Origin: Candidatus Omnitrophota bacterium
Lineage (GTDB): Bacteria; Omnitrophota; Gorgyraeia; Tantalellales; Tantalellaceae
Assembly: GCA_014728075.1 (NCBI GenBank)
Contig: WJMG01000019.1
Location: 1-60,060, forward strand
Length of the DNA: 60,060 nt
Reading direction: 5' to 3'
A model generated the notes under the pieces. It saw only the letters and a list, made by a program, of their open reading frames with translations, was not told the DNA's origin and made no database searches. The position numbers and the translations under genes were made by a program. Of the stretch, positions 553 to 25,500 are shown one piece after another; positions within the stretch are counted from its first letter, which is position 1; the number at the start of each line of letters is the position of its first letter.

Positions 553-557
553 AAATT

Positions 558-1229: not shown

Positions 1230-1243
1230 ATTTACTACCTGTC

Positions 1244-1315: not shown

Positions 1316-1320
1316 TGGTG

Positions 1321-1362
1321 GAACAAGAAAAAGGCCCTGAGAACATGTTCCCAGAGCCTTTT
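1321..1362 (-). terminator. candidate intrinsic terminator of the downstream giant ORF
   Basis: Minus-strand RNA reads AAAAGGCUCUGGGAAC-AU-GUUCUCAGGGCCUUUU (16 pairs including two G.U wobbles), followed by UCUUGUU. On the plus strand the same two positions are C.A mismatches, so the hairpin is better on the minus strand. It lies ~160 nt after the stop at 1524. Confidence 0.45.
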
Positions 1363-1523
1363 CCCAAGATGCAGAAAGGTATCTTGATTTTTACCGTTCG
1401 ATAGACCACCCCCTTTTCAGTTTTTTCCTTACTTAATTTACACAAATAAAATTCCCAATAAACCCCTCAACCCCGGCCTTTAAGTAAGCGCTTACCTGTC
1501 CGCGCATTAATGCTCCCGGCCCA

Positions 1524-4500
1524 TTACGCTCTTATAAGCACTTCCGTAACATAGCGCTCGTAAGCCCTGATCTCGGCCTCGAGGTCCACCTTCTGGATCT
1601 TCGGGAAATATATGAACCAGTTCCCGGAACCCGCTACGGATATGACCTCTCCCAGTTCCGCGGGGATACTGCCCGTAGCCGCTATTTCCACCAGAGACAT
1701 GAGAAGCTGGGAAGCTATCCCCCCCTCTTTCATCTGCACGAATAGCGGCGCAGATATTTCGTCCTCCATGATGGCCTCATCCTGTTCCGTTACCACAAGA
1801 TTACCGGTATCACCTATAGCCAGGTCCTTTGCCAGCATATCCTCACCGAAAGTGCTTCTGGCCAGTTCTATAGTACGCTCCAGGGTCATGTCGTCGGGAC
1901 CCGTTATCACCACATTGGATGGTAAAATATAACCGCTGAGCCCCGTTGCTTCCATGATCTCTTCCTTATTCGCTTCTGTTATGTTCGCGTCGCGCACTCT
2001 GACCTGTATGAAACGCGAAGCCTCTTCCGCGGTGATGCCCATGCCGGCGATGGAGTTGGCTATGAACTTCAGGTCCGCCGCGCTGCCGGCCGATACGCTT
2101 ATGTATTTTCTTGCGGCTTGCTGAGGCCCTTCCGTAATATACGATTCGGCCTCAGCGGAATACACGAAATCACCTTTTACCAGGTCATACACCCTGTTCA
2201 TCCTCAATTCGTACACGCTTTTTTGGCCGAGTTTGAAGGATTCAGCGTCCGGCAGGACTTTCGCCAGCACAAAGGCTATATCCCTCAGCTCTTCCAAAGC
2301 CTCTATCTGCATTACTTTCTGATAATCCAGTGAGGCTATCTCGGGGTTAAGCAGCATTACGATATCTTTTGAGGCCCTGGCGGCAAATCCTCTGATAAGT
2401 TCCTCCGCCTCTCCGGCCCTTTCGGGAGTTATGTCAAGAAGAGCCGCTATGGCCTTCTCCCCTTCGATCCGTGAGTCGAGCTCCGCCAGCATCTGTTCCG
2501 GGCCGCCGGGGCTTACCGGGGTCAGGCGAATACCGAGTTCCCTCTCAAGTTCCTCTACGGTACCTTCTCCCAGATAAGCGTAGACCCGGTCGGGAACGCC
2601 TATCACGACCGCATAATCTCCGAACGCCTCTTCACGGGCCTTATTCTTATCTTCTATTTCACGGATAAGGATCTGCGCCTCTTCCACGACCCAGGCGCCT
2701 TTCGAGACCTCAACGCTGTCCTTTGCCGCTATCGCCCTTATCTTCTCAAGAAGAGGCAGTGCCTCCTCTTCCATAATATTTTCACGCACTATCTTCAAGA
2801 TCCTGGCTATGTTCGTGTAAGTATATTCGTTCTCTATCCCTATATACGACAGCGCAGCGACAGCTTTTTCGTAAAGCCCGAAGCCGGCGGCCGCCTTGGC
2901 ATAGGAAAGATTGGGAAAATGCCACGGAAATGTAATACCCCTGAACTTCTCGATGCCGTTAAGGAACTCGTATACTTCATCGGCAAGTTCCGTATCTTTA
3001 AGATAGCCCAGAGCTTCGTACACAAGGTACCCGCCTTCATAGATATGAGGCCCCGCAAGATACTCCGCCAGGATCTTAATATCCTCTTCCCGCACCATCT
3101 CTCTCCCCTCCGGTTCCCTTAAGGCCATCAAGAGATAATGCGCGGATATGTATTTTTCGGCTATAAGGGACCTGATCCTGATCTCTTCCTCTTCGTTATC
3201 CGCGACAGCATAAGCTTCTTCTCTTATTTCGGGGTGGAGAGCCGCCAAAAGGTCCTCCATAGCCTTCCGCCTTTCATCATTCGGAAGGACACCGTCGACC
3301 AAAGCCCTTCTAGCCGCTTCAAGTTCTTTCATCCTGGAATCCGATATGAGCGGTAAAAATTTCTCGTACATCTCTAGATATATAAAATCGGCCTCTCCCT
3401 TATAGAGCATCGCGGGAAGGGTGCGGGACTGTACTACCTTGAACTCCCCGTCGTGAGTGAGGACCCATTCTATGTCCTGAGACCAGCCCCAGAAAAGGTC
3501 CTCTATTCCTTCGGCTATGCCGGAAAGCTCCCTCACCTGGCGCGGGGTAAGCACTTCCATGTCCATAAGCTCGTCGCCTACCTCGTCGAAATCCACATCC
3601 CTCATGCGCCCGTCCACCAGTTCTTTGAGCTGCATCTGAAAAGAACGCCTCGAATCCGTTCCCTCGTATTCGTCATCGGGTATTTCCTCATCCCTTACGC
3701 TGTCCCAGAGGAACCTGGCCACATTACCTCTGCCGGAAACCGCGGCCGCTATACCCCAGCCCGCCTTGGTCTCGACCCTCGCCTTGTTGCCGGGTACCGG
3801 GTCAACCGTCAGGGTAACGCCCGACCTCAATCTCTTCTTCCCGGCCTCCTCGAGCGTTTCCACTTCGACCGCGGGGACCTGAAGTATAACCGCGGGATAG
3901 ACTTCCTCCTCGGACACACCGTGCTGCACACGGGTATTGAAAGCCGTTTCCGAATATTTGGTCGCTATGACATATTTCAATGCCGTAATTATCTTGTTAT
4001 ACGGCCCGTCCGGGTCAAAATGATCGTATTTCACCTCTTCGTAAAGGTCGTGCTTGGGAAAAGACTCGTACTGTCCCGAGGCGCTTATCATCGGAAGGTC
4101 CTCGAAATTGAAACTGGACCTAAGGAAGAACGAATAGTTGCCGTTCCTGTCCATAAGCTCGTCCGCGGCGGAAATGACCTCTTTTTTGAGGTCTTCGTTC
4201 ATTTCGGCCCGGACTATGATCTCCCTTATCCTGGCCAGCCTGGAGGACAGCTCCTCGCCGGAGACCTGTATGCTGCCGTCCTCCGCGCGTATCGGCTTCA
4301 TTCCTTCGGTACCGTCGCCGGCGAATATTTCCTCTATTTTTTCCCTGAGGCCCGCGGACTCCAGGAAGCGCTGGCAGAACTCGAAAGAAAAAGCCGCAAA
4401 ATCCGGGACCTCGTAACCGTTCTTTATAAGATGGCCCTGGTTAGCGGCTTTCGCGCCGACCCTGTTGATGTAAAGCAGATCAACCTCGTCCCCCATGAAA

Positions 4501-7500
4501 TAGAGTTCGCTTTCCGGCCCAAGGACAGGTTCGGGTATCTTTATGTCCTCTGCAGGCTTAACCGCGGGCCTGGGGGGCGGGTTCTCTATCTCGAAATTCC
4601 TGGCCCTCCTGAGGCTGGCGTTCTTGCTTGGAGTCGCCTGCAGGGTAAAAAGAGTGTTCCTCATGGCGCCGTGGCGGTAATCGAAATCCTTGAGAAGATG
4701 AACACCGTCGGGCACGACCACGAGGGGAATACCCTTTTCCCTGGAGATGTTGAGCGCGTGAAGATTCCCTTCCACACTGGTAATTATCCCCGTGGCCTTG
4801 AGAGAACCCACATTATCGGAAAATTCCGGTATGACCCAGATCAGGTCTTCGGGAAGCTTTTCCTGTTCTTCCGGGCTGAGCAGCCGCTCAAGTTCGTCCA
4901 TGTCGTCCACGACTATCACTTTGCCCACCGCCGCGGGAGCCGCGTTCTCTACTCTCCGGCTGTGAAGCCCGTATTTATTGACATATCTCTGAAAATCGCT
5001 CCTTACGGCGTCGAACATGCCTTCGAGGCCCTCCATATCATCGTTCTCCGAGAGAAAACGCGCCCCCTCGCCTTCTCCTTCGGTCATCTCTCTCAGAACA
5101 TAGCTGACCTTACCCCATATGTACATAGCCCTGAAGAACGCCTGGTCGATATCGTGTTCCCGGGTAACTTTCGCGTAAGCTTCCCTGAACCTTGCCAGCC
5201 CGTCCTTCAGCCTCTTGAAATCGGTCAGCTTCCTGCCGAACCTGCTAAGATATGCCGCCTCGGCGGAAGAGACGAGCGCCAGCATTACATCTATCTTGTC
5301 AGGGCTGAAGCTGAAGGATTCCATTATGAATTCTATCCTTTTGGCCGCCCTGGCCATCTGATCGGCTATCGCGTTCTCATTGGCCTCCAGGATCATGGCG
5401 GATATCTTCTCCATTTTTTCAGTGTGCACCGTCTGGGGATATTCTTCCCTGGGACGAGTATTCCAGTACTGATGCAGAAGGATCGCCCTTACTATCTGGT
5501 TGTAAAGGACCGGCATAACTATATCGAGCGGCATCTCCTCGAAAAAGGCCCTGGTCATGTAAACGGCCTGAGAGGTACCCTGCCTGGTCCCCGAAGACGC
5601 TACCACCCATTTCTCCTGGTCGGCGCCCAGTAGATACGGATAGCTTTCGTATCTGCTTCCCGGGACCGCTTCTATAAGGTATACCTGGAGGTCGTTGACG
5701 AACATGCGGCCCTCGGCCAGGGCCTTGCTTTTCTCCTCGGCGTCCATTTCCAGGTAATTCGTCTTTAAGAATTCGAAGAAAGTTTCGTCACCGTTCAAAG
5801 CCCCCAGCCTTTCCAGCAGCGCAGTGGTGACCGGCCTCGCCTCCCCTCCCGAGTAATCTCTGTCAACATAAAGCCCTCTTTCCGGGTCGAAGGACAGCAG
5901 GAGAAACTTCTTTTCCCCCCTGGCCCCCACGAAAACATCTTCCTGTATCCTCCTTCCGACCGCTTCTTTCCAGTAATGGCTTTCCGTGCCCAGCGAACCT
6001 ATATCCTTGGGATGACTCCCTATCCTCGCGGCTTCGCGCGAGACCTTAAGGTCTTCTTCCAGATAGTCCTCCACCAGCCAGGCCGGTCCGAGGCCGGCTT
6101 CCTCGGCGGGCACGGGCCTGTACCCCGAAGCATAGATAAAAGCCTTCTGCTCCTCCGGCTCACCTTCGGGAACATTAATGCCGGTTTCTGAATACCCGAA
6201 AAGCCAGTTCAGCGCCTCGTCAACATCTTGCCGGTCGCCCTCCAGCTCCATGGCTATCTCGGTCCCGTCTTCGGGGAGAAACCCAAAAGTGAGAAATCCC
6301 ATAGCGTTATTAACAGGGGACATCTCCTCCCCCTTCTTACCCATGGATACCTTGACCTTACCCGTTTGTATGAACTGCTTGAAAAATCCACCGGCGGGTC
6401 CAGCGTGAAAACCTCTCGTGTATTTGTTCAGCGTAAAGACCGTCTCTTCTTTCACCGGTCCGGCTTCTTCGGCGGGCGACCCGTATCCCGAGACATATAT
6501 AAGGTTTCTCTGCTGCTTCTCCAGGCCTTCCGGCATTCCGGGGATACCTTCTTCCGTATAGCTCAGAAGCCAGTTCACGGCTTCGTCGACATCCTCCCGA
6601 AGCCCCTCGAGCTCTATTTCCACCAAATCCTCGGCTTCGGGGTCCAGCCCCATGGCAAGGACATTCGTGGGGAAAGACACCCTTTGCCTCTCTTCCCCGG
6701 GCCGGCCCATAAAAAGCCTTACTTTTCCGGTCTGAACATACCTCATAAAGAACTTCTGGAGCGGCCCGACATGAAGGCCCCTGGTATACCTGTTCAACTT
6801 TACCGTGGTGGTTTCCCTGACAAGAGGCATCTCTTCACTGGAAGCGAAGATCTTCTCCTCCCCTTCCGAAAGCTCCTGGACATCCAGAATGAAGTCATTA
6901 ACATCGCGCTCTTTTCCGAGGATCCTGAACTCAGCCTTTTCACCCTTATTCATAAAAAGGTTGCTCGCCCCTTTTACGCTTACGGGGCCGCCCTCCGCCA
7001 GAAGCTCGAGAGATACGCCGTACTCTTCCATAAGCCTGATTATTCGACGGGCCGGCGCGTTGTGTATCCCGGAGGGAGCGGTTACCGTAAAAGCGAAGTT
7101 CCCCTCGTAGGGAGCCTCTTTCCCGGGAACGGCCTCTTCAGTCTCCGCGGCGCGCCTTTCGCCTCCCGCCAGGACCGATACGGCCAGTCCTATAGTGAAC
7201 AAGGCGGGCGCGAGCATACCGTGAAGCAGATACGCCCAGGCGTCGTTCACCCCAAGGCGGAGGTGCGCCCATTCGTGAGTGTAATAAAAATACTGAAGCG
7301 AAGGCGGCCTCTTTCTCATTTCGGCCTCGTTGATGTGAAGCACTCCCGCCCCGTCGACAAAGGCGATGAACCGGTCTTCATCCGTCAGGTCTTTCATCAC
7401 CATCCGGTCGTCCGAAAATTCGTCAATCAGTCCGTATTCCGCTTTCTGGGCCCCCGGCAGCAGGCTTTTGAGAAAAATATCCGCCCTGTTCACGGCCCCC

Positions 7501-10500
7501 GAATAAAGATCAATACCCTGTACGGCGTAAAGAAGGGCGGTCAGGGAGAACCATACACCCCCTAACAGGTAACGCACATCCGGACCGAGCAAAAGCATGG
7601 CCGCGCCGAGCCCCAGGAACAACCCCGAAGCGAGCATGGAGCCACCGGCGGAAACCGGTTTCTCTTCGGCCTTTTTACTCGTCTTTTCCCCGACGAGGCT
7701 GTCCATGTTCTTCGACTGGGTGAGCGTAGCGGTCTTGTCATCTCCCTTCTCACCGGCCGGCCCGATATTTATCCAGGGAGAAGCCCCCACAAGCCTTTCT
7801 CCGAAGGTGGAAGAGAGCCCTTCGATGAACTCCATGGCCTTTTTCGGACCTATAAGGTTCATATTGAACTCGTTAACTGTAAAATCTATCTCTTTTCCCG
7901 ATACCACGGGGAAATTGTTTATCCACTCAACGGTGCTTCTAAGGTACTCGTCCCTGTCGTCCTCCTTTCCGGTTATCCACGCGTGTATATCGATAAGCAC
8001 TCTTCCGGGGTCTATCCCGACCTCGGGCATCTGGAGGACCCGGAAAAGTTCGGCCGCGATGTCGGGCTCCGTAACGGTGATCCCCACTATAAGCCTTTTC
8101 TTGGCGGGAAGCGCCCTGAGCAGCCTCACCACACTGCCTATAACCTCCGCCTTGGAGTTCTTCTCGTACTTGACGGGCCACTCTATCTCGTTGACCATGA
8201 AATCCACCCGCTCATCGCTCCCGTACCGGCGGGCCACCTCAACGGCTTTATCAGTGAGTTTTTCGAGAGCTATATCGTCCTTCACGGCAAGCACCATATC
8301 AAGGGCTATGAGCTGCGCCTTCATGCCTTCGGGAAGAAGACCCATAAAAGCGTCAAGTTCCTTCATATCAAAAACATCCGGCTTGCCTATATTTACCCTG
8401 ACCGCCCCGTATCCCGCTTTCCGGTACCTCTCGAGCTCGGCCTTTATCCATTCGGCGTTGTTCGTAACGCTTCCCTTTGACATATCGAACCCAAGCCCTC
8501 CTTCTGGAGAAGGCAGGCGCAGATGCCTGACATGGGACACCTTTCCGGGTTCGGCTTCGGCGCGCGCGAGAGTGCCCGCCCCGACTATGGCAACGGGGTC
8601 GGAAGCCTCCCCGTCATAGGAAAACTGAATACCCAGCGCGTTGGTCTCCCGGAAGACGGCCCTGCGTTTTTCGGGATCCAGACCTGAAACATCGAATTTT
8701 ACCCTCACCACACCCGGAGAAGCGAGCAGAACGGAATGCGGCTGTCCATAGGCCGGTTTCCAGCCGTCGTACTTGACGAAAGGCTGCAGGACCAGGGGCT
8801 TCTCGTGGTCGGCTACATATATGCCGGGCACTTTGATATCGAAATAGATCACGGGCGTATCCGGTCCGAGGACATCGCCGGCCTCAAAGAGCACGCTCCC
8901 TTTCTGGCGCGCGGGATCCTCGACGCGGGGCAGGAACGAAGTATTCACCCTTATGGTCTCCAGATCAAGGGGTTCGGCGCTTTCAACGGCCTTTGCCCCG
9001 GGATCGCCCTTATCGGCGTAGAACCTGTACCGCGCCCCGTCGAAGAACGGCTCTCTTTCCGGCGGGTCGGTAACGCTTATCGAAACGACCTCGATATCCT
9101 CGGCGGTTTTCCTCCTGAAAAAGGCCTCGAGTCCCACTATCCTCACGCGGGAAGCGATATCTTCAGGCACGGTCCTGAGGTCGAAGGTCACCAGGGTATT
9201 TACTCCCGAGGAAGTAACATTCATGCCCGGTCCTTCTTTCGCGGTCCAGTCCGGGGCCCCGGCCTTGACATAAGGCTTAACCCATAACAGCTCGTCTTTC
9301 TTCTCGACATACCCTTCCGGGACGCGTATCTTGAACACCAGGATCTTTCCCCTCGCGTCGACGGCTTCGTCGAAGGCAAAATCAGCCCGGCCTTTCTGTC
9401 TGTTACGGTCTTCCTCAGGAGGCCTGAAATCCATATCCAGCCGGTACCCCCGGCCCTCACGCACCACTTCTTTCACGGCTTTCGCGTCCGCAGTGCCTTG
9501 ATCGGGCGAGCCCTTTAGTGCGGTTGTCCTGACCACGGCTTCCTTACGGGCCCGGCCTCCGTCAGCCGGCTCCGCCGCGCCCAGCTGACCGGTGAGGATC
9601 ATGAACATCACAACGGGAGCGGCGAGCAGAAAACGGGCCTTGAAAGGCATCACTCCGAGCGTTCCCTTTAACGCCGCCAGGGCCGGTTTAGCTTTACGGG
9701 CAATATCGCCTACAAAATACATCAGGACAAGAAGGGGAGACAACGGCCCCTGCAGCGAAAAGACCGAAAACTCGGACAAGGTCGTGTTCCTGAGTCCCGC
9801 CGAAAGAAGCGTTTTGTGGATAAGCTCGTGATTATAATAGAACCTCTGGACAAAAGCCGGGCGGCGGGCCATGGCTTCGGCGTCGACATGCATAACGCCA
9901 TCCGCGTCCACATAAGCCAGGCTTTCCCTGCCCGGGGCTATCTCTCTGGAAACTGAAGGATCGCTGAACTCCGGTATAAGCCCGGGCCCCGCCCTCACGG
10001 GAGTGACCCTGGGGAAAAGCATTCTATCAACCCGGGAGAAGATATCGTATTTCAGGTCTCCCGACTGCACAAGATACACCACGGAAGACAAAGCCGCCCA
10101 CGCGCCCGCAAGGAAATACGGCATATCCTGCCCGAAGACAAAAGCACCGACGGCGATCGCCCCAAAAAGAAGAGCCGCCGCCAATGAAGCGGAAGGCGTT
10201 ATTTTCATCTTTTTCCCGCTAAGCGAGGATATCTGTTTTCTCGCCCTTTTTATCCTGCGTCCGGCCAGTTCAAAGAACCTGAGGTTCACCCCGTTCGATA
10301 CGGCAACGCGGGCATTAGAGTTGAATATCCGCCTGAGCTCGTTTATGCTGGCCTCGTTAAGCTTGACGAGGTCTTCCGCCCTCGCGAAACGCCCTATCCC
10401 GATCTCCGACTCTATCTCCTCGAAAACACCGTTAACGGCGTCCCTCAACTCGATGACCCTGAGTTCCGCGTTATAATCCGTAACGCTCTCGTCAGCTTTT

Positions 10501-13500
10501 TCCGCTTCGGGCGGAAGCGCGGTCTTCGTGTCGTTCCCGGCGGGGACACCGTCCAGACTCAGGCTCACCCACGGCCCTACGCCCCGGCAGTTCGGGAAAT
10601 CACGGAGTATCTCACGCAGGAACTTTTCCCCGCCTCCGTACTTTACGACAAATTCGTTAACACTGAACTCTACATCGTCCGGCACGGACATCAGGTATTT
10701 TCTGCATTCCTCCAGATATATATCGGGATCCTCTTCTTTCCGTTCTCCGACATAAGCGTGCAGGTCCAGAACTACATTATTCGCTCCGATCTCGTTCACT
10801 ATACCGACCGCCAGGCCTATTTCGGTCAGGGTGAAGCCTATGTGAAGTTTCTTGCCCCGGGCGGCCTGGTCCTGGGCCAGCTCTTTCAGCATCGACACTA
10901 TCATATCTCTCGATACGGGATCCGGCTTCTCTTTTCCGGGAGCCGGCTTTCTCAGGTGGTATATACCCCCTTCTTCGCGGGATACGATGTGTTCGGGCTC
11001 GTTGACACTCCATATTATGTTCTCGTCGTCACCGTATTCGTCCAGCAGAGCCACCGCCCGCCGGCGGGTATTCTCGAGGCTGTCCTCCCCTCCCGATACC
11101 AGCACAAAATCAATGAACACTACTTCCAGCTTTACCCCCGCGCGGCGGGCTATACCCAAAAGCGCTTCGAACTCCCTTTCAAAAGCCCGTCTTCCTCCCG
11201 GGGTATCGAAATCGAGGACTTTCCCTATGTTCACTCTCACCGCATCGTACCCATGTCCGGACGCCGCGAAAGACTCGAATCTTCGCCTTACCTCCCCGAT
11301 GTTCTCTGTAACGGCACCGGGAACGAGGTCAAATCCGACCTCTTTCGTTTCAGGGGGCGCCGGCAGCCTCCAGTTCCGGGTGAACACCGCCTGCCTGACG
11401 GGGCGTTTCTTCGCGTCAGCCACATAGACTTCCTCTATCTCCACGCGTCCCGAAACCTCGTTATCCGTCTCGAACTGGGCCCCGACGATCGTTATCTGCC
11501 CTATATCCCGGGGAAGCTCCATCTCCGCCCTAAGGGTGTCCCCGGAGACGAATATGTCCTGTGAACTTTCTTCCATTGCCATAAAATAATCCGGCGCGGG
11601 TCCCTTCACGAAAAGCCGAACTCTAGCGGGCGTCGAAGCGTCCGTGAAACCTTCCGGCACAGAGAACCTGACAACGAGTTTTTCGTTCTCCTCCACAGTC
11701 AGCGGCGCCGCCAGTTCGAAGTTCACTCTGCCCCTCTGCCTGTTCGCGTCCGAGGAAGAGAAAGCCGCGTCGATCACCGCCGCTTTCTCTCTGGACTGAG
11801 AAGCTTGCCTGAAAGCGGCAACATCGAGCATATCCGGCGCGGGCCTGTCCACATATACTTCCTTTACTCCCAGGTCTTTCTTTTCCTCTTCATATCCCGG
11901 AGCCATGGCCCTGGACGCTTCCGCCGCCCGCCTGGTCATGCTCATGTGCTCCCTCCATATCCTCATGGCCTCTTCAGGATCTATCCTCCGGTCAAGGTCC
12001 GGCCTGCCTATTATCCTGGGATTGGCCAGCTCAAGGCGTCCTATCGACCTTTTCTGCGAATACCCGTTAAGCAGCAGATACCCCCCCGCTACCGCGTCGG
12101 GGTCGAAATCCTCTATAGTCGGCATGGTCTTTTCCGAGGCCATGGACAAAGTCCCCCAGTTCCCCTCCATGAAGCGTATGCTCCTGTAATCGGCTTCGTT
12201 GTGTTCGTCCAGTTCGACCTTTGTGGGGATATTGAGCCTGGCCCTGCCCCCCTGCGCGCAGATGCCCCCTTCCTCGCCCAAAAGCTTGAGTTCCAGGTAT
12301 TTCCCCTTCAGCTCATCCCGGGAAGACGGGTCCGGCAGCCTTACATCCACGGCAAAGACCTCCCTGTCCGAACGCATTCTCCTTGCTTCGGGAAACATTA
12401 TCCTGACCCCGCCCTCGGTCCTTTTGACATCGAACACGGTCCGGGGCAAAAGGTCGTAGAAAAGCGAATACCCGTTGACCACATTGGGGATCTTCTCGTT
12501 GGGAAGCACCATGTTGTTGGGGCTCACGCCGAACGGGACCATGTCTCCGTGGATGTGCCGCCAGTCAACCCCGAAAAGTTTTCGATAAAGACCTCCCGCG
12601 TCCTTTATCACTCCTTTCTTTTCGAGCGCTGAAAGAGTGTGTTCGAAGTTTATAACATAGTAGTCGAGATGCCACTGGGGGTACGCCTTCCCCGACGCCT
12701 CCAGCCGCTGCATCTCCATAAAGGCCATAAGACTGTGGAACATCTCTTCGGTTTCCCGGCTCATTCTGCCCTCGGTTTTCCTGTCCCTCTCGGCGGCGTC
12801 CTCGAAATCCTTGAGGTAACCCCTGAAATCCTTAAGAACCTCGAGAGCCCTTTCACCGTCACGATCGAGGACGGTCCTCGAAACTTCTTCCCCGGGAGCG
12901 AGCTCGTCGGATATTATCCTGTAGGCCCTTCCTGAGGGGTCCTGCTCCTCCACCATCACCCTTCTCTCGGTCTTCGTCGCTATGGCCCTTGCCATGCGGG
13001 CCCTCTGAAGAGCGTCGGGCCCCTGGTAGAGGTAAAGTATCGCCCCCGAAGGGAGTATCAGGAACACCAGGGCCACGAAACCCCGCTTCAGGTAAGGCAC
13101 TATTTTAGAATCCCAGTAATCCCCGGCCCTGGATAAGGCCCCGGTTAAAGAAGATACCACCCCCAGCCTTTCCGTTCTTATCTGAGTCTTGCCGTGCCAG
13201 GGAAGTTCCTTCACCCTGCGGGGGATCATCACGGAGAACCAGGACGGCATCCTTTCAGCCATACGGAAAAGACGAGCGCAATTCCTGACCAGGAACCTTA
13301 CCCTCGAGAGGGCGGAGCTTCCCAGCCTTGCCCGCGTCAGGGCCTGCCGGCCTCTCCACCATACCGCGCTTATCATCTTCGGAGAGAAGAACTGGTAAAT
13401 GGCCAGCACGGCCGCGAATATAAGGTGGTTGAAATACTGTATGAGAAGCGGAGATTTCATTATCCATACTATGCCGTGCCTTGATCGCCTGCCCACGGTG

Positions 13501-16500
13501 GCAATAGGCTTTCCGGTCACCCAGCTGTAAACCGTCAGTCCGAGGTCGATCGCGGAAAACACCAAAAGCGCAGCGGCGCTCTGCCACGGGATAGCGCTGG
13601 TAGCGTAGAGCAGAAGCCCCGCGGCCCCGACCGCAAGCCCGGCAAAGAACCCTACCCAGCCCAGTCTTATCTCTCCCCTGACCATACTTTTAAGCTCTTT
13701 AGCCCTTTCCACGGCCTCGTGCACGGCGCTCAGCGCCATTATCCTTTCCTCAAGCGGGTCGAGGTACTCCCTTCTTTCCGCTTTCCTTATCCATTTCCTG
13801 TCAGCCAGCTGTTTGAAATCGCCGCCTTTCAGGAACTCACGGAAAGAAGCGAAATCCTTTCCGAACTGCTTGTACTTTGCCTTTCTCCATACAGTGAAAA
13901 GGTCTTCGAGCCCCGCGAAAGAGGCGACGAAAGCCTCGCCGTCAAAGATATTTTCAAAAAGCTCCTCTTTTTTATCCTCCATTTCCGCTATGTAATCGTC
14001 AAGGACGGAGAGGACCTCTTCGTCCTCGGAATAATTGATGTTCAGCCTGTCCGCCGGGACACCCCTTCTTCTTTCCAGGACCTCCCGCATCCCGAAGAAA
14101 CTGCTGTAGTCCATGTCCTCGATACCGAGAAGGTTCCTGGCCGCTTCCCGGAGCATCTCCTCGTCCTCGAAGCTTTTCCTTACGGATGTCATCACGCCCA
14201 TGAAGGTCTGTATTACCATGGGACTTGCGAAGATCATGGCTCCTATGGCCGTGGTCACCAGCCAGCCGTTCAGCATGGGCACCGTGCCCTGAAGCTGCTG
14301 GGCGGTGTGCATGAGAAGAACCCCGATATCCCCGAGGAACGGCATGGGAACATTGGCGAAAAGCAGGATCAGAAGGTACAGGTCGGTTATCAGGAACATG
14401 GCACCCGCGGCAAGCGCCGCAAGCGTGCCTGAAGCGAGATGGGTGACGAACTGGAACCTTACATAGCCCCACAACAGGCCCACCAGTCCCGGACGGCCGG
14501 CCATGGATACTATCGGGTCCAGGTCGTGCTGCATCTGCTTCAATATTCCCGCTCTTTCAAGGGCGGGGTTGACTACGAACCTTCCGGCTATGTAGAACAG
14601 CCATCCGAAGACGAAGAACCCGGCAAAAGCCAGCAATATGCCGTTCAGGGCGAACTGCGAACTGCCGAGAGCGCCCCACACCAGGCCGAACCCGAGGTAT
14701 TGCCCGAAGAACATCATGGCCGCGGGCAGATAGCTCAGTGTGGCCGAAAAGGTCTGCATGGATATCCACCTCGCCCTCTGGAACCACCAGGGAGTCCCTA
14801 CTTCGGGCAGGGCGTCCTCGAGTATCTGGGTATATTTCCCCTCGAGCCGTGTGTTGGGTATACCGTAAAGCGCCGTCCTGCGGCCCAGCTCGGAATCCTC
14901 GATTATGTTATACAGGTCCCACACCCCGGGTATACTGTACTTGTTCAGAAAATCCCTGAAAGCCGAAGCGGGCTTGAAAACGGAAGGTTGTCCGCTGAAC
15001 ATCAGGGTGATCCTCTTCAGCACCGCCCGGTACCAGGGCATCCTTCCTATCTCTTCCCTTACGGCGGCCCTTTCCACATCTATCTTCTCTTTCAGCGGGA
15101 ACTGGAGCATCTGGTGGTGCATCCTCCTGGAAAGCGGGAGCGCTCCCACAACGAAATTCCTGTCCCCGTCCATTATAGCTCTCGAGCCGGCAAGCCTTTC
15201 CCACCTGAAGTTGTTACCCGTTCCGCCCAGGAAAAGGAATCCGAACTTGGTCTGTCCGGGCTGTATGGTGGAATGCCACAAAAGATAATCCATGTGTGAT
15301 TTTTCGCTCAGCAGCGGATCACCTGTCGGCACCAGCCTCAGCTCCGACTGTATGACGAAAGGCGTATGGCGTTCCCTGAACTCGGATTCTATAAAATGTC
15401 TTCTCGGGTCATCGACCCTGGTGACATGTTCGGACTCGAAAAGGAACGATTGCGAAAGCGCCCAGGCCTTGAAAAGCCCCCGTTCTCTCTCGATGTCGGA
15501 ATTCTTCCAGGATAGTACCAGGTTGATATCCACGGCGTCGCCCATGAGAATGCCGTTTATGTCGGAATCACTGAGCCCGTACCGCCTTTGTATGCCGGCT
15601 AGCCTGCGCCTGTACTCCTCCTCAACGGCTCCGAGGGCGCTTTTGTCTATATCGTACGACCAGGTCTTCACGAAGGACCATAGCTGGTATTTGACCCTGT
15701 CCTCCGCGTTGCCGGAGACCAGCAGCGAAAGCGCTTCCTCGAAATCTTTTTCCATTAGGGCGTCGAACTCCCCGGCCGTCGTGGTCCCGGACTTTTTCCT
15801 GAGAGACGAGAGGACATTGTCGAATTCTCTTCCCAGAAGACCCTCTTCGCGGCTGAAATCTATACCCCACCTGTCGACATCTTCCTGGTCTATACTTCCG
15901 GGCGCTTCCGGGGTACCGGCCTGTTCTTTCATCACCCGCTCCCTCATACCCCACACGCATATCTTTGAGCTCAGGTTCAGCATGCCGAGACGGTCCTCCT
16001 GGTCCACCAGCTCCACCGAATACGGCGGTTCGAGATCTTTTTCCGCGTAATACCTTTTGGCCATGGCTATACAGGCCGAGTTCATAGGCGGTTTCATGCG
16101 GACCTTTCTCGGGTTCTTGGCGAAATTGATCCCCCATTCCGGGAAGGTGAAAACATGTATGTTGTTCCTGAGATGGTAAAGTTCCCCCATCTCCTCCGGA
16201 CCCCGGTCAACTCCTTCTTCGTTTCCGTAAACGGCCCTGTAGCAGGACCCTATGCCGCCGGCGTCGTCGTTGTCCAGCGCGAGTATATAATCGATCTCCC
16301 CCGGCCAGGAAGCGTTGGCGCTCTTTATGGTCTGCTTGATGTTATCGCCCGCGTCGGAGCTGAAAACGGTGTCCATTACGGCCAGCTTGTGAAAAAGCGG
16401 TACCGGCTCTACTCCTTTCTGCACGCGTCCCGCGAGTTCGGATATCTCCTCCTCGGTATACATCCACTGCCCCTCGCCAAGCTGTATGTCAAAAACCCTG

Positions 16501-19500
16501 CGGGCCCTTGAAAGATCACCGGCCGTGGCTTCCTCCAAGAGATCGGCGTTCCTCTTGAAGATCGTCAGGAATCTTTCCCTGGCGAGCAGCCGCCTTATGG
16601 CGTCGAGGTCCATTTGTGAGATTATATCGGAATTATCTATAAGCCCTTGCGCATCCAGCACGGAGGGGTCTTCTATCGAATCCATGAACTCGTCGTCCAT
16701 GCGAAGCACATCCACCAGGTCTTGCCTTCTCGCGTTGTTGATGAGGTAGAGTATCAGATGCGAGTGCGTGTCCATCCTCAGGCGATAAACGGCCCATTTT
16801 TCTATCGGTTGTTTTCTAAGCAGGTGCAGCCAACCTCTTATCCCGGAGTACTCCATAGACACCTTTCTCCAGACCTCTTTGGCGTTCCCGCTGGTGATGA
16901 TATTGTTTCTCATCGCCGCGGGGGTGTACCGGGTGCCGTTCTCGGCGTCTTCCGCCATCATGGACGCTTTCACCTCGTTAAGCATACCGGAAAGCGTCTG
17001 TTCGGGTATGTACCTGAGTATGTCGCGGTCGGTCACCATTTCGCCTCCGCCGAAAAAGAAGCGCCTTATTCCGGATATTCCGGGGACCCAGCTGAACAAA
17101 CCCAGGGTTTTTCTTATGATCCTTCCCGGCAGGCCGCCGGCTATCCTTTCGCTGCCCGTAAAATGCCCGGCCGCGAAAAACGCGACCTTGATCAGCATGT
17201 TCACCATCGTATAAGCGAATATTATCGAAACACCCATCGTCATGGCAGTGATGGGTATAGTGTATGCGGGCGCGTCCGACAGGCCGAACGAACCGACCAT
17301 GAAAATACGGATACCCATGGCGATCCACGGGGAAGATATGAACAGCGGGGCCATTATCAATATCACCGGGACCAGCCGTTTCAGGGATTCGACCATGCTG
17401 GTGCTTGCCGGGCCTACTCCGCCGAAACCCTTGATCCCCATCACATTTCCGGTCTCCTGGGCTATCCTGTTCTTGTCCTCCTCGTCGGCCACCACGGCAA
17501 GCTCTTCACCGTATTCTCCCGTACGCCCGAGCTTGGTTATGTTGTTCATCCGGCTCAGTATCTCGGGCACGAAAAGAGGGATGGCCGTCATCGGCACCGT
17601 CTGCCAGCTCATCCCCCTGTACTTCAATAGCCCGTTATGGGCCTCATCCTCTCCGAGTGCCCGGTAAGGCCCGTCCCTTGAGTACCATGCCTCGCGGGCA
17701 TCTTCCCGGCCTTTCGGCACGGGCATCAGACCGTAGAAGGTATCCTGCCCGTCGCTGCTGCGGCGCACCTGGTCAAAAGCCGGCCCGCGCATCCAGAAGG
17801 TAGGTTGCTGCGCCCTGAGAGGTGAAATGCCGTAATGGGCTTCGGAATGCATCGTAAAACCACTGTTCCTGGCGCTGTCGGCCATGAAATCCATCCACAT
17901 TATACTGTAATCGGCGTAATCCAGTATGTTCATCGGCATGGTCCTTACCTGCAGGGCGTCGCCCGCGTCCCCGAAAGGAGCCTGCACGGTGACCGAAAGT
18001 ATCTTCCTTTTTTCTTCGTCAGTGAGGTCAGTTCCGTCGAGAGCCTCCAGAACTTCCGCCCTGAACTCCTCCAGGGCTTTCTTCATGTCGAGAACGACCT
18101 GCCGCTGCCTCACTCTCTGCAAAGCGCGGTCCAGGTTGGGGATCCTGCCGGCGGAAAGCAGTCTGGGGAGATAACTCACCAGGTCCAGCGCCACATAAAT
18201 GTTACGGCTGAGGTCAAGCCACGCCCTTTTTTTCCTGTTCTCCCAGAGCGTAATGTCCGCACGGAGATCCGCGAGTTCCTCTTCCGCCTCTACTACGCTT
18301 TTCTCCAGGCGGTCCGCCTCTTCCGGGTCCGCTTCCTTCACCGCAAGGGCTTCCCTCTTTTTCCGCCCGATATCTGACTCAAGCGCTTTCGCCCGCGCCC
18401 GTAAGCGCGAGGGCTGGCCAGAGATATAAACGATCGCCGCCTTGGCGATGAGGTAGAGCCCTCCCAGCGGCACGAGCCCAAGGGCCATCAACACGGCCGC
18501 CAGCATATGCACCTGGAAACCCCAGGGAAAAGCGGTAGCCATCAACAGTGCTCCCGAAATAAAGAACACCGCGCCGAGCTTATTGTAAGGCACTCTCACC
18601 GGAAACTTATTTCCCTTCTCGCCGTACCTGCCTTCTTCTTCGTTCCATACGACCCCGTACGGGTTGAGCTTGATATGGGCATCCTCGTATTTCCGCGTCA
18701 GATCGGACCCGGCCTCCGACAACGCCTGCCTTACTGAGACGATGTCCTCGAGCTTGGCCCCGTCGACCCCGGGCCTTACGACGGGCCTTAAAACCTTTCT
18801 TTCGGCCTCTTCCCCGGCTTCTTCGGCGGATTCTTCCACGGCCTCTTCCTCGCCGGCAGTAAGACCCGCGGACGCTTCTCCGGCACCTTCCGAAGGCCTT
18901 CCGCCTTCAGGCCTGCCGCCTGCATCCCGGCGGCTTTGACGGGCCTTATCCCCGGAGATCAGCCTCCTTGCTCCGCCCAGGAGCTTACCGGCAAGGCTGA
19001 CAGCCAGAAGTCCAGCGAGAGTGATCCCGAACACCCAGCCGAAACTGACAGCGTACCTTATGGCTTTTCCCCTGAAAAGCCTCGCGCCTACCTGGTCCAT
19101 TGCCTCCTTCAGGGTCAGACGCCCTTCCATGAGGTCCGCCGTTACCTGCATGCGCACCCTTACATCCACTTCTCCGAGATCGTACCTCGTTGAATCGGAA
19201 GCTATATCTCCCACCAGCTTGAGAAAAAGAAGCCTTTCCGCCGCAGGCGACATCCGCGCTTCCGGGTCCTCCTCGACGAGAGCGAGCTTCTCGTTGGTCA
19301 GGTTGGCTTCGAAAAAATCCCTCAGCAGACCTTCCTGTGTTTCCGAGGCTATCATGCGCATCTTGGGCAGGACATCGGCGCCGTATGTCTCAGCGAGATA
19401 AATGAGCTGTCCCAGCGAAGCGTTCCCGTTCTGATCGGAAACATCGAAGAACTCCCGGGCATCGACGGCTTCCTCCGCCCCTGTCCGGTTATACATCTCC

Positions 19501-22500
19501 GCGACCAGAACGCCCATTTTTTCGACCGCTTCGGCGGCTGCCAGGCCTTTTTCGGCTATAACGCCGTCCATGCGGTTCTTCCACCTCATCATTGTATAAT
19601 AATCCTTTTCGGGGATATCCCTCATTTCGCTCCCGTACCTGCCCATGAGCCGTGCAAGCTGGGGCCCGAACACATCTTCGTAACGGGCCGGCCGCCCCGT
19701 GTCCTCGACCGAAAAGGAACCGTCGTTGAAATCGACATCCTTTCTAACTCCCTGTATCTTCCTGTCCGGATCAGGCACGGTTATGTCGGTGCCGGGCGCG
19801 TATACCACGGTAAACCGCTTAACCCCCCGCGGCAGTTCGCTGAGTTCCCGTCCCTCCCAGTAATAGACGCCGTCCTCTGTATAGAACACTCTTTGCCTGC
19901 TGATAAGCGTCCGTCCGCCGGGATACACCAGTTCGTTGTTCTCGTCGATGAACACACCCTCAACGAGGCGTTTGCTCGGAAGGGGGCTCCCGTCCGGGCG
20001 GCAGGGAGAAACGAACACCGATCCGGCCAGGTCGCCGGTGAAATGCTGTACGAAGAGAAGTTCGGGAACACCTTTTTCGTCAACACCGTAAGCGTACCTC
20101 GTAACATCCCTTTCCGCTCCTACCACTCTTCCGTCATCGAGTATGCGCACGCCCTCGACCTCGCCTATGGCTCTCGAAGCCTCGTTGGCAAGGGCATCGT
20201 AAAGGGATTTGAATATCTTCCCTCCTTTGCCTGTGGTTATGTATACCCGTCCTGTCGTGTCCAGCACATACTGGACCTTCGGGTCCTCGACATCGTCGTA
20301 CCCTATCTTGAGTATGGTCACCTCGAGCCCGTCGATGTCCACTATGAAATCCTCGTTATCGAGCGACAGGAAACTTTTCCTGAGTTCCGCTCCGGTAATA
20401 TCAGAAAGTTTCATCACCTCGACCGGAAAAGATATATTATCCGTGGCCAGCCTGGCGACGGTCAGGTTAGGCCTGGACCTGTAGGCCTTGAAAACACCTC
20501 CACGGAGATCTTCCGGCACATACTCCTCGTCGACATATTTGGTGTAATGGTAGTCGCCCCTGTAACCTATATATCCGTACGGCTTGCCGGCAAGCAGCGG
20601 GACCTCATTACCTTCAGGGATCTCTATACCGGTCCTTATCTCGAAAGCCACGGATCTTTCTTCCGATATGGAACCGTCCCCGTCGTAGCCCAGCCTGTAT
20701 ATGTAGGTCAACGGTTCCACCTGTTTAGGCGCGAACCTCTGGTCCCTTTCTATGTAACGCTCCCTGGCAAACCTCAGCACGGGCCTGCGCGAAAGGTCAT
20801 CGTAACCGAAATCGACCACTTTGACCTCAACGGCTTTCCTCTCTCCGTCCACGGTGCGGAATTCCCTGAAGGTGCTTCTCAGCGGAAGGCCTATCTTCAC
20901 CGTGGGCGTGTCGGTAGTAAGGTATGTCCCCCCGGCCGTGGCGAATTCCGTCAATACTTCCCCGGTATCGCTGACCTCTTTTATCGAGCTTACCCTGTAA
21001 GCCCCTTCTTCCCCGGGAGCGCCTTCCGGGTCAAGGTAAGTAAAGACCTTTTCCGGACCATCTCCTGTTTTCTCCGACCTCAACTGGTTGGCCGCGGTCC
21101 TGTAGAACTGCCGTTCCGTGACGACATCTTCCAGCCCCCCGGCCAGGAAACGCCTTTTTACGGCCCTTTCCCCTGACTTCAGGGCGGTCCTGGCGCCTTT
21201 ATCATCAAGGTAATAATCTATGGTGGTCTTTTCCGGGAAGGCGTTGAGAGCCAGCCTGTCCCCCAGGGAACGCATCCTCCTCCTCAGCTCTCCGGCATCC
21301 GGAGGCAGGACAAGGTACATCTTTTCGAGCAGTTCGGCGGAATCCTCCCAGCGAGCCTCCTCAACGAAGCCCTTGAGTCGTTCGAAAGCCTTTTCAATCG
21401 TTATCCTTCCCTGGAGGATCCCCATCCTGGAAGCCATGTATTTCTCATAGACCCCGGTATCGCTTATCTGCTCGAGCCGTTCAGTGACAGCGCCCAGAGC
21501 CTCGGCTATTTCTTCAGGAGTGTACGGCCTCCGGTGATCCACTACCCCGCTCAACAGTCCGTCCCCGTAATACTCGTACTCCATTTCCAGGATCTCTTCA
21601 CCCGTTACTTTTCCATCCCTGACGGTCACGCCGGAAACCTCGTTCTCGCTGACACCCCGCTTCTCCGCCGAAGCGGTAAAGGTCCTGCCTTTCATCTCAA
21701 GGCCTATACCCGCTCTTCTCAAAGAGGGGTTCTCACCGGCCTCCTCAAGGACCTGCCCGTCATCAGTATATTGCGTATATATTTTCCCTCCTCTATACCC
21801 GATGGAGGATATTATTCTCACGCCCGAAAGGTCGGGTTCACGGCCGGGAACGATCTCAAGCCCCATTATTTCGTTCACCGGGTTCTCAACATCTCCGGCG
21901 GGGGCCACGAAAGTCCGGCCGGCTGCCTGGGACTGGCCTATCTCCTGAAGAAGCTCAGAAGTGCCCTCGTAGTGTATGTATACTTTCCCCCCCAGGTAAG
22001 CCATTTTTGAAAGCACCTTCTGTCCCGTCACATCGGCTTTGCCCGGGTGGACCTCGACGCCGGAAACCTCCATGACCGGCCTGGTCAGATCTCCGGCGGC
22101 GTAAGCGAAAGTGCGCCCGGCAAGCCCGGGGTCCTCTCCCGCTTTTCTCAGGACCCCCTCGTCTTCCGAATAGCTGACATACACCATTCCGCCCGCTATT
22201 CCCGCGGTCTTGACCACGGTCCCTTCGTTAACCACTTTGCCGTCCCTTATCAGAGTATCCGTAAGTTCCATTATAGCGGGGCCCTCCCCTTCGCTTCCGC
22301 GGACAAAGGTCTTCCCCCTGTTCGGCCCCCTTTCGTAAGAGGTCCATATACGACCCTCACCGTCGTAAGCGATACGGCTTACGACCTCCTCCCCGGAGGG
22401 GTCGGCTCTACCCTCGACAACATTTACACCACGGACTTCCATGAACGGCCGATCCACGCTGTCTTCCGCGGCCACGAAAACCCTTCCGGCAAGGCCGGGG

Positions 22501-25500
22501 TCAATACCGTTTTTCTTCAACACATCTTCGTGCGGCACATATTGCGTGTAAACCAGGCCGGGTTTTCCCTTTACTCTGCCTATGTCAAGGACCCATACCC
22601 ATCCGTCGTTCCTGACTACGGGCTTTCTCTTTCCGGAAGCGGCGAGCAGGACTTCGGCTTCCTGAGAAGGCGCTCCCGAAAGCACCTCTTCTTTTTCTCC
22701 CTCCTGAGGAGCTCTGGCCATAAGCCCCGAGGCGTCCTCTCCCCGCCTTTGGGAAAGAGGCTCCCCGATGTTTATCTCCCTTCCCGCCACCTGTCCTATC
22801 GGCTCATCCGGGCTATCCGCGTAGGAAACGAAGATCCTTCCGGCCAGTGCCGGATTCTCTCCGTTCTCGGCAAGGCGCCCGGGCGCGTCGGACCACTGCG
22901 TATAGATCTTTCCCATATACCTTTCGACCAGGGCAAGCCTGCCTCCGGGCATATTGACACCCGAAACATCCGTACCCTCTATATCTTCCCGTGAAAGCAC
23001 ATCCACTCTTTCGGAGATATTGAAGATGCCTCCTCGCGCTGTCTTTATCCCGGGGGCGGAAGCCCATATTTCTCTCTGGGAGGACAGCGCTCCTTCCGCG
23101 TCCTCGTAGCTCACGAAAGTCTTGCCGGGCGTAGCGGCCTCCACCACATAGAAAACCCTCCCCTTCCCGGGATAATTTATTTCGTATATATCCCGCAGCA
23201 GTTTGCCTTCCGCGGTGAACACCTGCATTACATCCAGAGTGCTTCCCTCCGGAAGCGTTACGCTTTCCCCCTGGTAAACGGCCTTTCTGCCGGACATATC
23301 GCAATGCATCCTCCCCACGGTAACTTCCTCGTAGGGCGCGACTTGTATATCCCTGAGGTCCGAAGCGTCAAGGGCTTTTTCCGCTTTTACGGGTTCCTTC
23401 AGCTTAAAATCCGCTATCTTATACCGGGGAGCCGCCGTCTCCGGGTCGGTAGGGGCGTAAAGGGATATCCCTGTAACATTCTCCCCGGAATCGTCGTATG
23501 TAAGCGTCGCGCTGGATGTATTAAAAAGTTCCGCGGGCCATTTTTGCCTGTCCGGGCTTCCGGGAAGTTCCAGGATAAGCGTCCTGTCCGGGGCTATCTT
23601 TACAGGTACCGAACCGGCCAGAGGCCTGTGCCGCTGGTATACCCTGCCCTCGAAACCGATCGCGACAACATCTCCAGAAGACCTTCCCACCTGCATCTTC
23701 AGGCGGCCCCTTCCCGCCTGGGACGGTGAGGGCCTTTCGCCCACGACCAGGTCCACAAGCCCCTCGCCGGGCCTTGTAAGAAAGGATAACTGCTTACGGC
23801 CTTCCGGGGTAAGGATATCTATCTGGTCACCCTTATATACTCTCTCTCCTTCTATCATCCTATAATTCCGGCTTCTTACCATTATCGATCCGTCAAGTAT
23901 CTCTATCCCTTCACCGTAAGGCACCTCCGCTACGGTACCCTCTTTAACCTTTCTCGTACGCACAGTTTCACTGAACTCGCGGTAGCCCGAGATCTCGCCG
24001 CTGGACCTGTCGTATTCTATACCGCTTTCCGCGGGGTCCCTGAAAACCGCCACGACCGGCCTCCTGCCACCTTCCGTCACCTTACCCGCTACGGTAACCT
24101 TTTTGACCCTTCCGGAACCGTCTTCCTCGTACTCCACAAAGACCGTTCCTCCTTCGGGAATGCTCACCCCTCCGACTTCTTTCACGCCTTCCGAAAAAGG
24201 CACGGACTCCAGGAAGGTCACGGAAACCGCCGTTATCGACGGCCCTATTGTCTTCTCCGGCGCGGAAGGATGCGGCGCGTTCACATTGAGCTGGCCCAGT
24301 ACGATAGATTCCGCCTCCATCTGACCGGGTATATTCTCGTAAATGACCCCCGAAAAAACGCCTTCCGCGGGCTGCGTTACAGACCCGCCTTCCTCTTCCG
24401 GCCTTACGCTGAAAGAACGCAACACCCTGCCGGACGGATCTACCACGGAAGCATAAACCGCCCTCAGCCTTTCCTGCCTGAGCACCGGGTCCCAGTAGAA
24501 GACCTTTTTGGTCCTCAAAGAATCGCCGTTCTCCATTTTCTCTATCAAAAGCCTGGAATATTCGCCGGTAAAGGCCCTGTCGACATATACCGTCTCGAGG
24601 TATTCGACGCGCCCCCTCAAACGCGCGTGGAAAAGCGTGTTCTCTCCTCTTTCTATCTCCTCTTCGGTGAATTGAGGCGTGGTGACGACATGCTTGACCC
24701 TGCCTCCGGTGGTTATTATCCTCCTTATCCTGGTGCCGTTATTGTCGTGTATACTGGTCTCCACAAGGTCCATGTTCTTGTTGTAATGGTCCTGCACCCT
24801 GGCTTCCTCGTAATAAGGCCATGTGTCCCGGTCGAATACCGGATATGTCATCCAGTTATCCTCACCGTTCCTCAGTCTTCCCGAAACCCTCATCTCCGCG
24901 CTCTTACCTTCTCCACCGCGGCCCCGGTGCACTACGCTGGTCTTGATCCAGGCCTCTACCATACGCCCGCCGGTCTCCACTCTTCCTTTCAAAGATGTCC
25001 TCCAGTCCTTGCTGCTATAGAATTCCGCCATCATCTGACGGAAAGTTACACCCTCTTCCACCAGTTCCGTTATGCGCCTTCTTTCCGCCATCTGGAAGTG
25101 CCTTCTCTGCGCTTTTTCCCACGGGGTCTCGGGCCCCATCTCCCCGTCGTAAAAAATGGGCCTTCCCAGTATATGCATGCCCAGGGCGTCTACCGGGTCT
25201 TCCCAGCTGCCCTTTCCGTCCTCGCCCCGGTACTCTATCAGGGGTGTATCCGCTATATCCCGGTATTTCTCCAGTAAAGGCTCGTGCGACTCCAGATGAT
25301 AAAGCAGCTTTTCGGGGACCACCTGGCCTATATCGGGTCCGGAGGGCATCACCGCTTCCGCCCGCGGGTCGGCCGCGCCTATAATACTGCGGGGAGAGAA
25401 GTTCGGATACTTGAAAAAGCTGTCCCCCTGCTTATACAAGGCCTCTTCCAGAAGGTTCACCCTGCCGCCGTATTTCGGATCGAAGACAGAACCCATCCTC

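Follow-up and report, generated by a model that had tools for sequence, protein, structure and literature searches.

RESULTS

A GT2-like module in a giant open reading frame

The window analyzed here is the whole stretch of 60,060 nucleotides from contig WJMG01000019.1 (positions 1 to 60,060, forward strand) of the Candidatus Omnitrophota assembly GCA_014728075.1, and nearly all of it is taken up by two giant minus-strand open reading frames (ORFs), g1 and g2. The ORF list and its translation place g1 at 1524..33188 (minus strand; 10,554 amino acids [aa]), with collinear homologues (proteins P0008, P0006, and P0001) in Omnitrophota metagenome-assembled genomes (MAGs); g2 lies at 33475..60045, comprises at least 8,856 aa, and is open at the window end. 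This study concerns a module inside g1 that, judged from its sequence, is a genuine member of the glycosyltransferase family 2 (GT2) superfamily, nearest to the membrane-embedded cellulose/poly-beta-1,6-N-acetylglucosamine (PNAG)-synthase-like group.

A first-pass annotation of the window had reported five GT2 motifs in canonical order at 14185-16400, which corresponds to g1 aa ~5597-6334, and all five were indeed found at the positions given, within one open frame of the minus-strand translation of g1. ORFs that overlap the module region on the plus strand or in alternative frames were Pfam-negative, and we take them to be noncoding shadows of the conserved minus-strand frame. The parts of the module and its surroundings, all on the minus strand (-), are as follows.

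13320..18161 (-), conserved block of ~1,600 aa (aa ~5010-6623) that encloses the GT2 module (BLASTP of g1 against P0006, P0007, P0003, and P0012)
17169..17375 (-), pair of hydrophobic helices at aa 5272-5290 and 5322-5340, inside the conserved block (hydropathy)
14172..16403 (-), GT2 synthase-like module (aa 5596-6339), made up of a GT-A domain and, C-terminal to it, a helical bundle (HMMER, hhalign, AlphaFold, Foldseek)
16263..16283 (-), first aspartate motif LALDNDD, aa 5636-5642 (D5639, D5642), where strand beta2 ends (30/30 covered sequences)
16080..16100 (-), RMKPPMN (K5699 in 30/30 and P5700 in 31/31 sequences; alignments)
15993..16007 (-), DxD-type motif VDQED, aa 5728-5732 (D5729, E5731, D5732), counterpart of YDAED (31/31; aligned with DAED)
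15384..15917 (-), insertion 1, helical, between DxED and the QSELR strand (214 aa here; high model confidence)
15201..15356 (-), core VIQSELRL ... MDYLLWH ... GGTGNNFRW (invariant residues 33/33; inside the hhalign match)
14937..15197 (-), insertion 2, flanked by GGTGNxF(R)W and WDxxNxIED (95 aa here; a beta-hairpin and three helices in the model)
14883..14921 (-), WDLYNIIEDSELG with the putative catalytic ED (E6097, D6098; 14895-14900) at a helix N terminus (W, D, N, E, and D invariant, 33/33)
14766..14780 (-), QRARW (QxxRW motif) in a short helix, 36 to 39 aa from ED (Q, R, R, and W invariant, 33/33)
14175..14729 (-), six long helices, aa 6154-6338, that follow QRARW as a largely hydrophobic bundle (hydropathy and DSSP; conserved in homologues)
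14493..14555 (-), conserved loop, aa 6212-6232, consensus RNxQWQVDPxKxMG, ILKQMQHDLDP in the window, between helices two and three of that bundle

Within these parts, GGTGNNFRW corresponds to aa 5988-5996 (15201-15227), IIEDSELG to aa 6095-6102 (14883-14906), and WWFQRARW to aa 6134-6141. The long insertions between motifs that had been proposed were about right in extent: 86 aa separate D5642 from D5729, and 364 aa separate D5732 from E6097, the latter distance being made up of two separate insertions. The arrangement ED-x(30-45)-QxxRW arose in 3.1% of 2,000 residue shuffles of both giants, and a QxxRW is expected ~0.3 times by chance; since the motif pair is this frequent in shuffled sequence, the motifs by themselves are no more than suggestive, and homology needed testing. 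A QVERW at aa 3875 of g2 had no accompanying motifs and was judged to be a chance occurrence.

Homology recovered by exhaustive and profile-profile searches

An HMMER (phmmer) search with aa 5560-6380 against 1.84 billion representative proteins returned 40 matches. P0001 to P0019 carry the same module, at 31 to 51% identity, within proteins of 738 to 7,834 aa, many of them partial. Eight other proteins, P0033 to P0040 (331 to 1,260 aa), matched with whole-library E values of 6e-5 to 7e-4, and all eight are bona fide Pfam GT2s (Glyco_tranf_2_3/Glyco_trans_2_3, up to 1e-33). Their alignment with the query falls into two segments, aa ~5924-5999 and ~6087-6199, which indicates an insertion in the giant module.

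We built one alignment of the giant modules (A1), one of the GT2s P0033 to P0040 (A2), and one from 33 genomes (A3). Comparison of A1 with A2 by hhalign gave a probability of 98.3% and an E value of 1.5e-14 over aa 5934-6167, and the A2 profile in turn matched the BcsA structures 7LBY and 4HG6 in the PDB (E value, 1.7e-19). The best NCBIfam matches of the A2 GT2s were PgaC/IcaA and CelA, all under the equivalog cut-offs (for the PgaC/IcaA model TIGR03937, 48 to 109 bits against a cut-off of 422); the JGI name for one member is [quoted passage not shown]. The GT2-superfamily identity proposed in the first-pass annotation is therefore upheld by HMMER, by hhalign, and by the BcsA link of the bridging profile.

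The N-terminal motifs YP..D..DxxD, (R)xKPxxN, and DxED were collinear with those of canonical GT2s both by hhalign and in an independent MAFFT alignment, with the following correspondences.

Giant LAVMDT, canonical YSILIP
Giant WPGEIDYILALDNDD, canonical YPxxLDIxxLVEEDD
Giant RMKPPMN, canonical RTKPKACN
Giant VELVDQEDRL, canonical VIYDAEDRP

LALDNDD pairs with the canonical LVEEDD in both alignments. Farther along the chain, VIQSELRL, MDYLLWH, and GGTGNNFRW have the counterparts CIQARLNFYN, EYxxWF, and GGTSNHFR, and WDLYNIIEDSELG aligns with WDPYNVTEDADLG of the canonical relatives by hhalign and MAFFT. Altogether, nine blocks can be aligned, and their order is that of canonical GT2s. Two divergent intermediate forms, P0024 (2,871 aa) and P0028 (1,159 aa), carry DGTTNSF, IIEDA(K/H)(L/M)G, and QRSRWI and have no Pfam match at all; P0024 has an additional hydrophobic insertion directly ahead of its GGT motif.

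The module in curated libraries

Pfam and NCBIfam searches over the region and both whole giants returned no GT2, glycoside hydrolase (GH), carbohydrate-binding module (CBM), or PilZ match, and the module stretch matched none of the NCBIfam models CelA, PRK11498, and TIGR03937. Searched alone against PF13632 (Glyco_trans_2_3), the module scored 9.9 bits (E value, 0.79), with a cut-off of 27 bits. Glyco_trans_2_3 was the only Pfam family to recur in the module family (6 of the 33 members at an E value of ≤1, the best being 0.0011), always below threshold. The first-pass annotation had proposed Pfam GT2 models as a check and had regarded a missing hit as grounds for rejecting its assignment; no match at curated thresholds was obtained, and homology was established through intermediates and profile-profile comparison. 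Long insertions at two sites explain this failure: the curated hidden Markov model (HMM) libraries miss a GT2 clade owing to two large insertions in its catalytic domain. Word-indexed homologue searches with the whole module, with alignment A1, and with the conserved core also gave no match, which we take to reflect a limitation of the index rather than absence, since P0001 and others are present in the same collection.

Conservation and distribution

A pattern scan in which each GTDB species was represented by a single genome identified 33 loci, 19 of which are labelled Omnitrophota or Omnitrophica, "Candidatus Omnitrophus magneticus" among them. One locus belongs to "Candidatus Aadella gelida", which is Omnitrophota by NCBI taxonomy, and P0001 and P0007 are NCBI Candidatus Omnitrophota proteins. 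With few exceptions, the reading frame that contains the module stays open over all or most of the DNA retrieved for the locus; in two cases (L031 and L033) the frame is broken within the module. The remaining loci, at 29 to 60% identity, come from MAGs labelled Planctomycetia, Planctomycetota, or Elusimicrobiota (L004, L005, L007, L008, L012, L014, L024-L026, L028, L029, L031, and L034); these are either mislabelled Omnitrophota bins or evidence of a wider spread of the giant family.

The 33 sequences of A3 are 28 to 59% identical to the window sequence. Wherever the position was covered, D5639, D5642, K5699, P5700, D5729, E5731, D5732, Q5947, D5967, Y5968, W5971, GGTGN, F5994, W6090, D6091, N6094, E6097, D6098, E6124, Q6137, R6138, R6140, and W6141 were 100% conserved; the core residues Q5947, D5967, Y5968, W5971, GGTGN, and F5994 were invariant in all 33. 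The conservation of D, ED, and QxxRW that the first-pass annotation had named as a test is thus observed in every covered sequence. The spacing between these residues differs by site.

Site 1, DxED to Q: 89 to 259 aa in giant modules, 24 aa in canonical GT2s
Site 2, GGTGNxF to WD: 73 to 203 aa in giant modules, 10 aa in canonical GT2s
ED to QRxRW: 36 to 39 aa in giant modules, ~34 aa in canonical GT2s

Catalytic residues that stay invariant while the insertions vary freely in length are the signature of purifying selection on catalysis. Approximately 85 aa of insertion 1 was found, among the relatives examined, only in the closest ones, P0001 and P0002. In the distant homologue P0017, the alignment with g1 is confined to the N terminus and the module; the module is one of the few segments conserved across the giants.

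Predicted structure and membrane helices

A first model, built from giant modules only, had a mean predicted local distance difference test score (pLDDT) of 71.5, and its Foldseek matches were already dominated by GT-A enzymes. The second, an AlphaFold model of aa 5596-6339, used an input alignment of giant modules and eight canonical GT2s and reached a pLDDT of 87.3 and a predicted template modelling score (pTM) of 0.88. DSSP assigned to it an alternating beta/alpha domain in which insertion 1 is helical and insertion 2 forms a hairpin and three helices; the helix at model residues 502-512 begins exactly at ED, the helix at 537-546 holds QRARW, and six long helices then follow.

In a Foldseek search of the PDB with the second model, the best 50 matches were all GT-A glycosyltransferases, with soybean CesA3 as the top match and SpsA (1H7L) at a probability of 1.00 (root mean square deviation [rmsd] of 3.5 Å over 150 columns; TMt, 0.40). 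Alignments longer than 400 columns were obtained only with soybean and poplar cellulose synthase (CesA), Escherichia coli BcsA, hyaluronan synthase (HAS), and chitin synthases.

The hydrophobic helices that had been reported directly after QxxRW are present, both as hydropathy peaks (aa 6156-6174, 6183-6201, 6259-6277, and 6308-6326) and as the six long helices of the model. In the loop between the second and third of these helices, the Q, D, and P of RNxQWQVDPxKxMG are near-invariant in A3; the motif has no known counterpart. Its placement at the position of the gating loop makes it, speculatively, a candidate gating-loop analogue. The two upstream helices within aa 5272-5340 are possible N-terminal membrane partners of the module.

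Genomic setting

Across its length, g1 has 19 hydropathy peaks at the transmembrane threshold, two pairs of which overlap. Its sole Pfam domain is PPDK_N (pyruvate phosphate dikinase, ATP binding), near the C terminus (aa ~9604-9923; window 3420-4379, minus strand; E value, 1.2e-28). The first-pass annotation had placed GH-like and CBM-like modules in the same chain; Pfam detected neither in the whole 10,554-aa g1 at an E value of ≤0.01, and the proposal that one polypeptide both makes and trims or binds a glycan is consequently left without support. BLASTP comparison of g1 with g2 revealed no paralogy, and comparison of g1 with g2 and with itself revealed no second copy of the module.

The domains of g2 comprise a Ser/Thr protein kinase (aa 136-364), FHA (~1174-1217), SecA_DEAD (2671-3077), tetratricopeptide (TPR) repeats (~6500-7700), and a weak match to an Rce1-like CAAX protease (~8317-8430). 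Just past the 3' end of g1, a 223-aa plus-strand ORF (window 558-1229) encodes an IS200-like Y1 transposase domain (E value, 2.6e-6) in a stretch of low GC content (0.43 over window positions 1-2000, compared with ~0.56 elsewhere).

The N-terminal ~700 aa of g1 (aa ~11-699; window ~31100-33150, minus strand) are 47 to 49% identical to the N termini of P0006 and P0008 and carry no Pfam annotation, which makes this region a second domain of the giant family that is strongly conserved but lacks annotation. P0006 (7,834 aa; locus L001, JGI 3300029258, Ga0309772_1000523) is flanked on both sides by giant ORFs, of >3,248 aa and >7,272 aa, and giant genes in tandem, as in the window, are therefore found elsewhere too. 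Downstream of P0006, the giant gene encodes PEP-utilizers_C and Metallophos; together with PPDK_N in g1, this suggests that phosphotransfer or sugar-metabolism modules recur in giant gene arrays.

DISCUSSION

Interpretation of the module

In this study, we have identified at aa ~5596-6339 of g1 what is probably a catalytically active, though highly divergent, GT2 enzyme of GT-A fold belonging to the membrane-embedded synthase-like group that includes its relatives BcsA and PgaC. By analogy with characterized GT2 synthases, D5639/D5642 and the DxED motif at 5729-5732 would provide the nucleotide-sugar- and metal-binding aspartates, E6097-D6098 would form the region of the catalytic base, and QRARW would bind the acceptor. 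The GT domain would lie on the cytoplasmic side of the membrane and take up nucleoside diphosphate sugars; sugars would be added singly to a beta-linked glycan that grows while held by the QRARW tryptophan, and the product would reach the cell surface by being threaded through the adjoining helices. On this analogy, we infer that the module may synthesize its product processively and export it.

Several observations weigh against this interpretation. Neither Pfam (E value of ≤1) nor NCBIfam gave a GT2 match when searched with 1,167 aa spanning the region, and phmmer and two giant-module family profiles found nothing relevant among PDB sequences. The hhalign match of the N-terminal half alone is of marginal significance (E values, 0.014 to 0.016). 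Confidence in the first model was low in the vicinity of ED and GGTGN, and the second may lean toward the canonical GT2 fold, since its alignment held canonical GT2s. Its Foldseek matches are individually weak (E values of 0.048 to 0.6 and template modelling scores [TM-scores] of ≤0.42); the alignments with synthases extend over 420 to 750 columns, but with TM-scores of 0.12 to 0.35, rmsd values of 18 to 27 Å, and E values of ≥0.048. The comparison with BcsA and chitin synthase structures proposed in the first-pass annotation thus recovered GT-A enzymes and long synthase alignments, at individually weak scores. The nearest upstream hydrophobic helices lie ~260 aa ahead of the GT domain. Neither an FxVTxK nor a WGTSGRK/R gating-loop motif was found by regular-expression search of aa 5001-6800, and the PilZ element that had been suggested as something to look for was absent both as a Pfam match and as an RxxxR...D/NxSxxG motif. 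Finally, enzymes of families GT2 and GT21 that bear QxxRW also include lipid glycosyltransferases, so that the motif does not imply processivity.

The main rival explanation is a nonprocessive lipid- or protein-directed transferase. In that case the module would be an active GT2 that is not a polymer synthase and transfers a single sugar or a small number of sugars to a membrane lipid, a lipid carrier, or the giant protein itself, its helices serving only as a membrane anchor and acceptor site. In its favor are the lack of recognizable gating-loop and PilZ elements and of adjacent N-terminal transmembrane helices of the BcsA/HAS kind, the low TM-scores to synthase structures, and closest canonical relatives that are uncharacterized and fall under every NCBIfam equivalog cut-off. 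However, among solved structures the bridging family is closest to BcsA, and PgaC/IcaA and CelA give its best NCBIfam matches; QRxRW is invariant, stands at the canonical distance from ED, and precedes a six-helix bundle that is itself conserved; long Foldseek alignments were obtained with processive synthases only; and a conserved loop occupies the gating-loop position. We regard a nonpolymerizing enzyme as rather unlikely.

A degenerate GT2 relic, its fold retained as a structural or sugar-binding element and catalytically dead, could account for the extreme divergence of the module and its lack of a curated HMM match, for two very large insertions within a catalytic domain, and for the low confidence of the giants-only model around the catalytic motifs. 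Every residue equivalent to a catalytic or substrate-binding position is nevertheless 100% conserved among 33 sequences at 28 to 59% identity, in which the insertions vary freely; this invariance makes a dead relic very improbable. A set of short motifs that arose by chance in so long a protein and is unrelated to GT2, for which the shuffling frequencies and the lone QVERW of g2 might speak, is excluded for practical purposes by the HMMER matches to eight bona fide GT2s (E values of <1e-3 among 1.84e9 proteins), their Pfam assignments, the hhalign E value of 1.5e-14, nine collinear motif blocks, and a Foldseek top 50 made up wholly of GT-A enzymes.

A synthase-like, membrane-embedded GT2 thus remains our preferred interpretation, and it can be extended, more tentatively, to the giants as a whole. 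It can be envisioned, although we consider it doubtful, that the module is the conserved catalytic heart of the Omnitrophota giants, that each giant is a self-contained factory that polymerizes and extrudes a surface glycan, and that the insertions, at sites also used by CesA, couple synthesis to the rest of the chain. If so, the product might be a surface glycan such as a "coat" or an adhesive matrix for attachment to prey or host, and the giants would be redefined as biosynthetic machines and not only degradative or adhesive ones.

With its complete and invariant catalytic signature, the module offers a defined enzymatic unit that could be cut out of the chain and assayed for the donors it accepts and for polymer formation, and it suggests that the giants produce surface glycans rather than only degrading them. 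A GT2 clade missed by HMM libraries matters for the annotation of carbohydrate-active enzymes (CAZymes) in uncultured phyla.

Comparison with known systems

The closest canonical relatives of the module are the GT2s P0033 to P0040 (e.g., Sulfobacillus acidophilus AEJ40237.1; PF13641/PF13632), which share its nine-block order of YP..D..(E/D)DD, (R)xKPxxN, DxED, QxxL, (D/E)YxxW, GGT(G/S)NxF, WDxxNx(T/I)ED, LE(E/D), and QRxRWI and likewise have hydrophobic helices after QRxRW. They have 24 and 10 aa where the module has insertions of 214 and 95 aa, and they possess adjacent N-terminal transmembrane helices and a C-terminal WxKTxHG motif, both of which the module lacks. Five of them are proteins of 331 to 617 aa and three of 663 to 1,260 aa, whereas the module lies in midchain in 10,554 aa; unlike them, it falls under the Pfam cut-offs.

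BcsA (4HG6/4P00 and 7LBY), the best solved relative of this bridging family (E value, 1.7e-19), has D, DxD, ED, and QxxRW in the same order as the module, with ~38 aa between ED and QxxRW. The finger and interface helices of BcsA are an ED-starting helix and a QxxRW helix ahead of the transmembrane helices, as in the model of the module. BcsA is also among the long Foldseek alignments, with a TM-score of just 0.19 to 0.22. In contrast to BcsA, the module has no PilZ domain, no FxVTxK loop, no NCBIfam CelA or PRK11498 match, and no set of four adjacent N-terminal transmembrane helices.

Plant CesA provides a precedent for the insertions: the plant-conserved region (PCR) and the class-specific region (CSR) are large insertions in its GT2 domain, and D, DxD, TED, and QxxRW are retained (PMC10291031). 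In both CesA and the module, a GT2 synthase core is split by large lineage-specific insertions and the motifs are kept; the two sets of insertions have no sequence similarity. The CSR, between GTGCxFxR and VTED, presumably occupies the same site as insertion 2. CesA proteins are stand-alone, at ~1,000 aa, and assemble into trimers and rosettes, whereas the module is one internal part of a giant bacterial chain.

Giant membrane proteins of the "Archaeovorin" type have been described in Omnitrophota as long ORFs with many transmembrane helices and SecA_DEAD; these ORFs are poorly conserved, carry only a small number of annotated domains, and are of unclear function, and GT5 and GT1 domains have been reported in them (bioRxiv 10.1101/2023.11.21.568195; PMC10066038). 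When these two sources were searched by term, nothing on GT2, "family 2", cellulose, or cellulose-synthase-like modules came up. Unlike the described giants, g1 itself has no SecA_DEAD domain by Pfam, whereas the adjacent g2 has one; in their ORF lengths of >7,000 aa, many transmembrane helices, few domains, and Omnitrophota homologues, g1 and g2 resemble them. GT2 synthases and the giants themselves were already known; what is new is an insertion-laden GT2 clade, invisible to HMM libraries, among the few conserved cores of the Omnitrophota giants.

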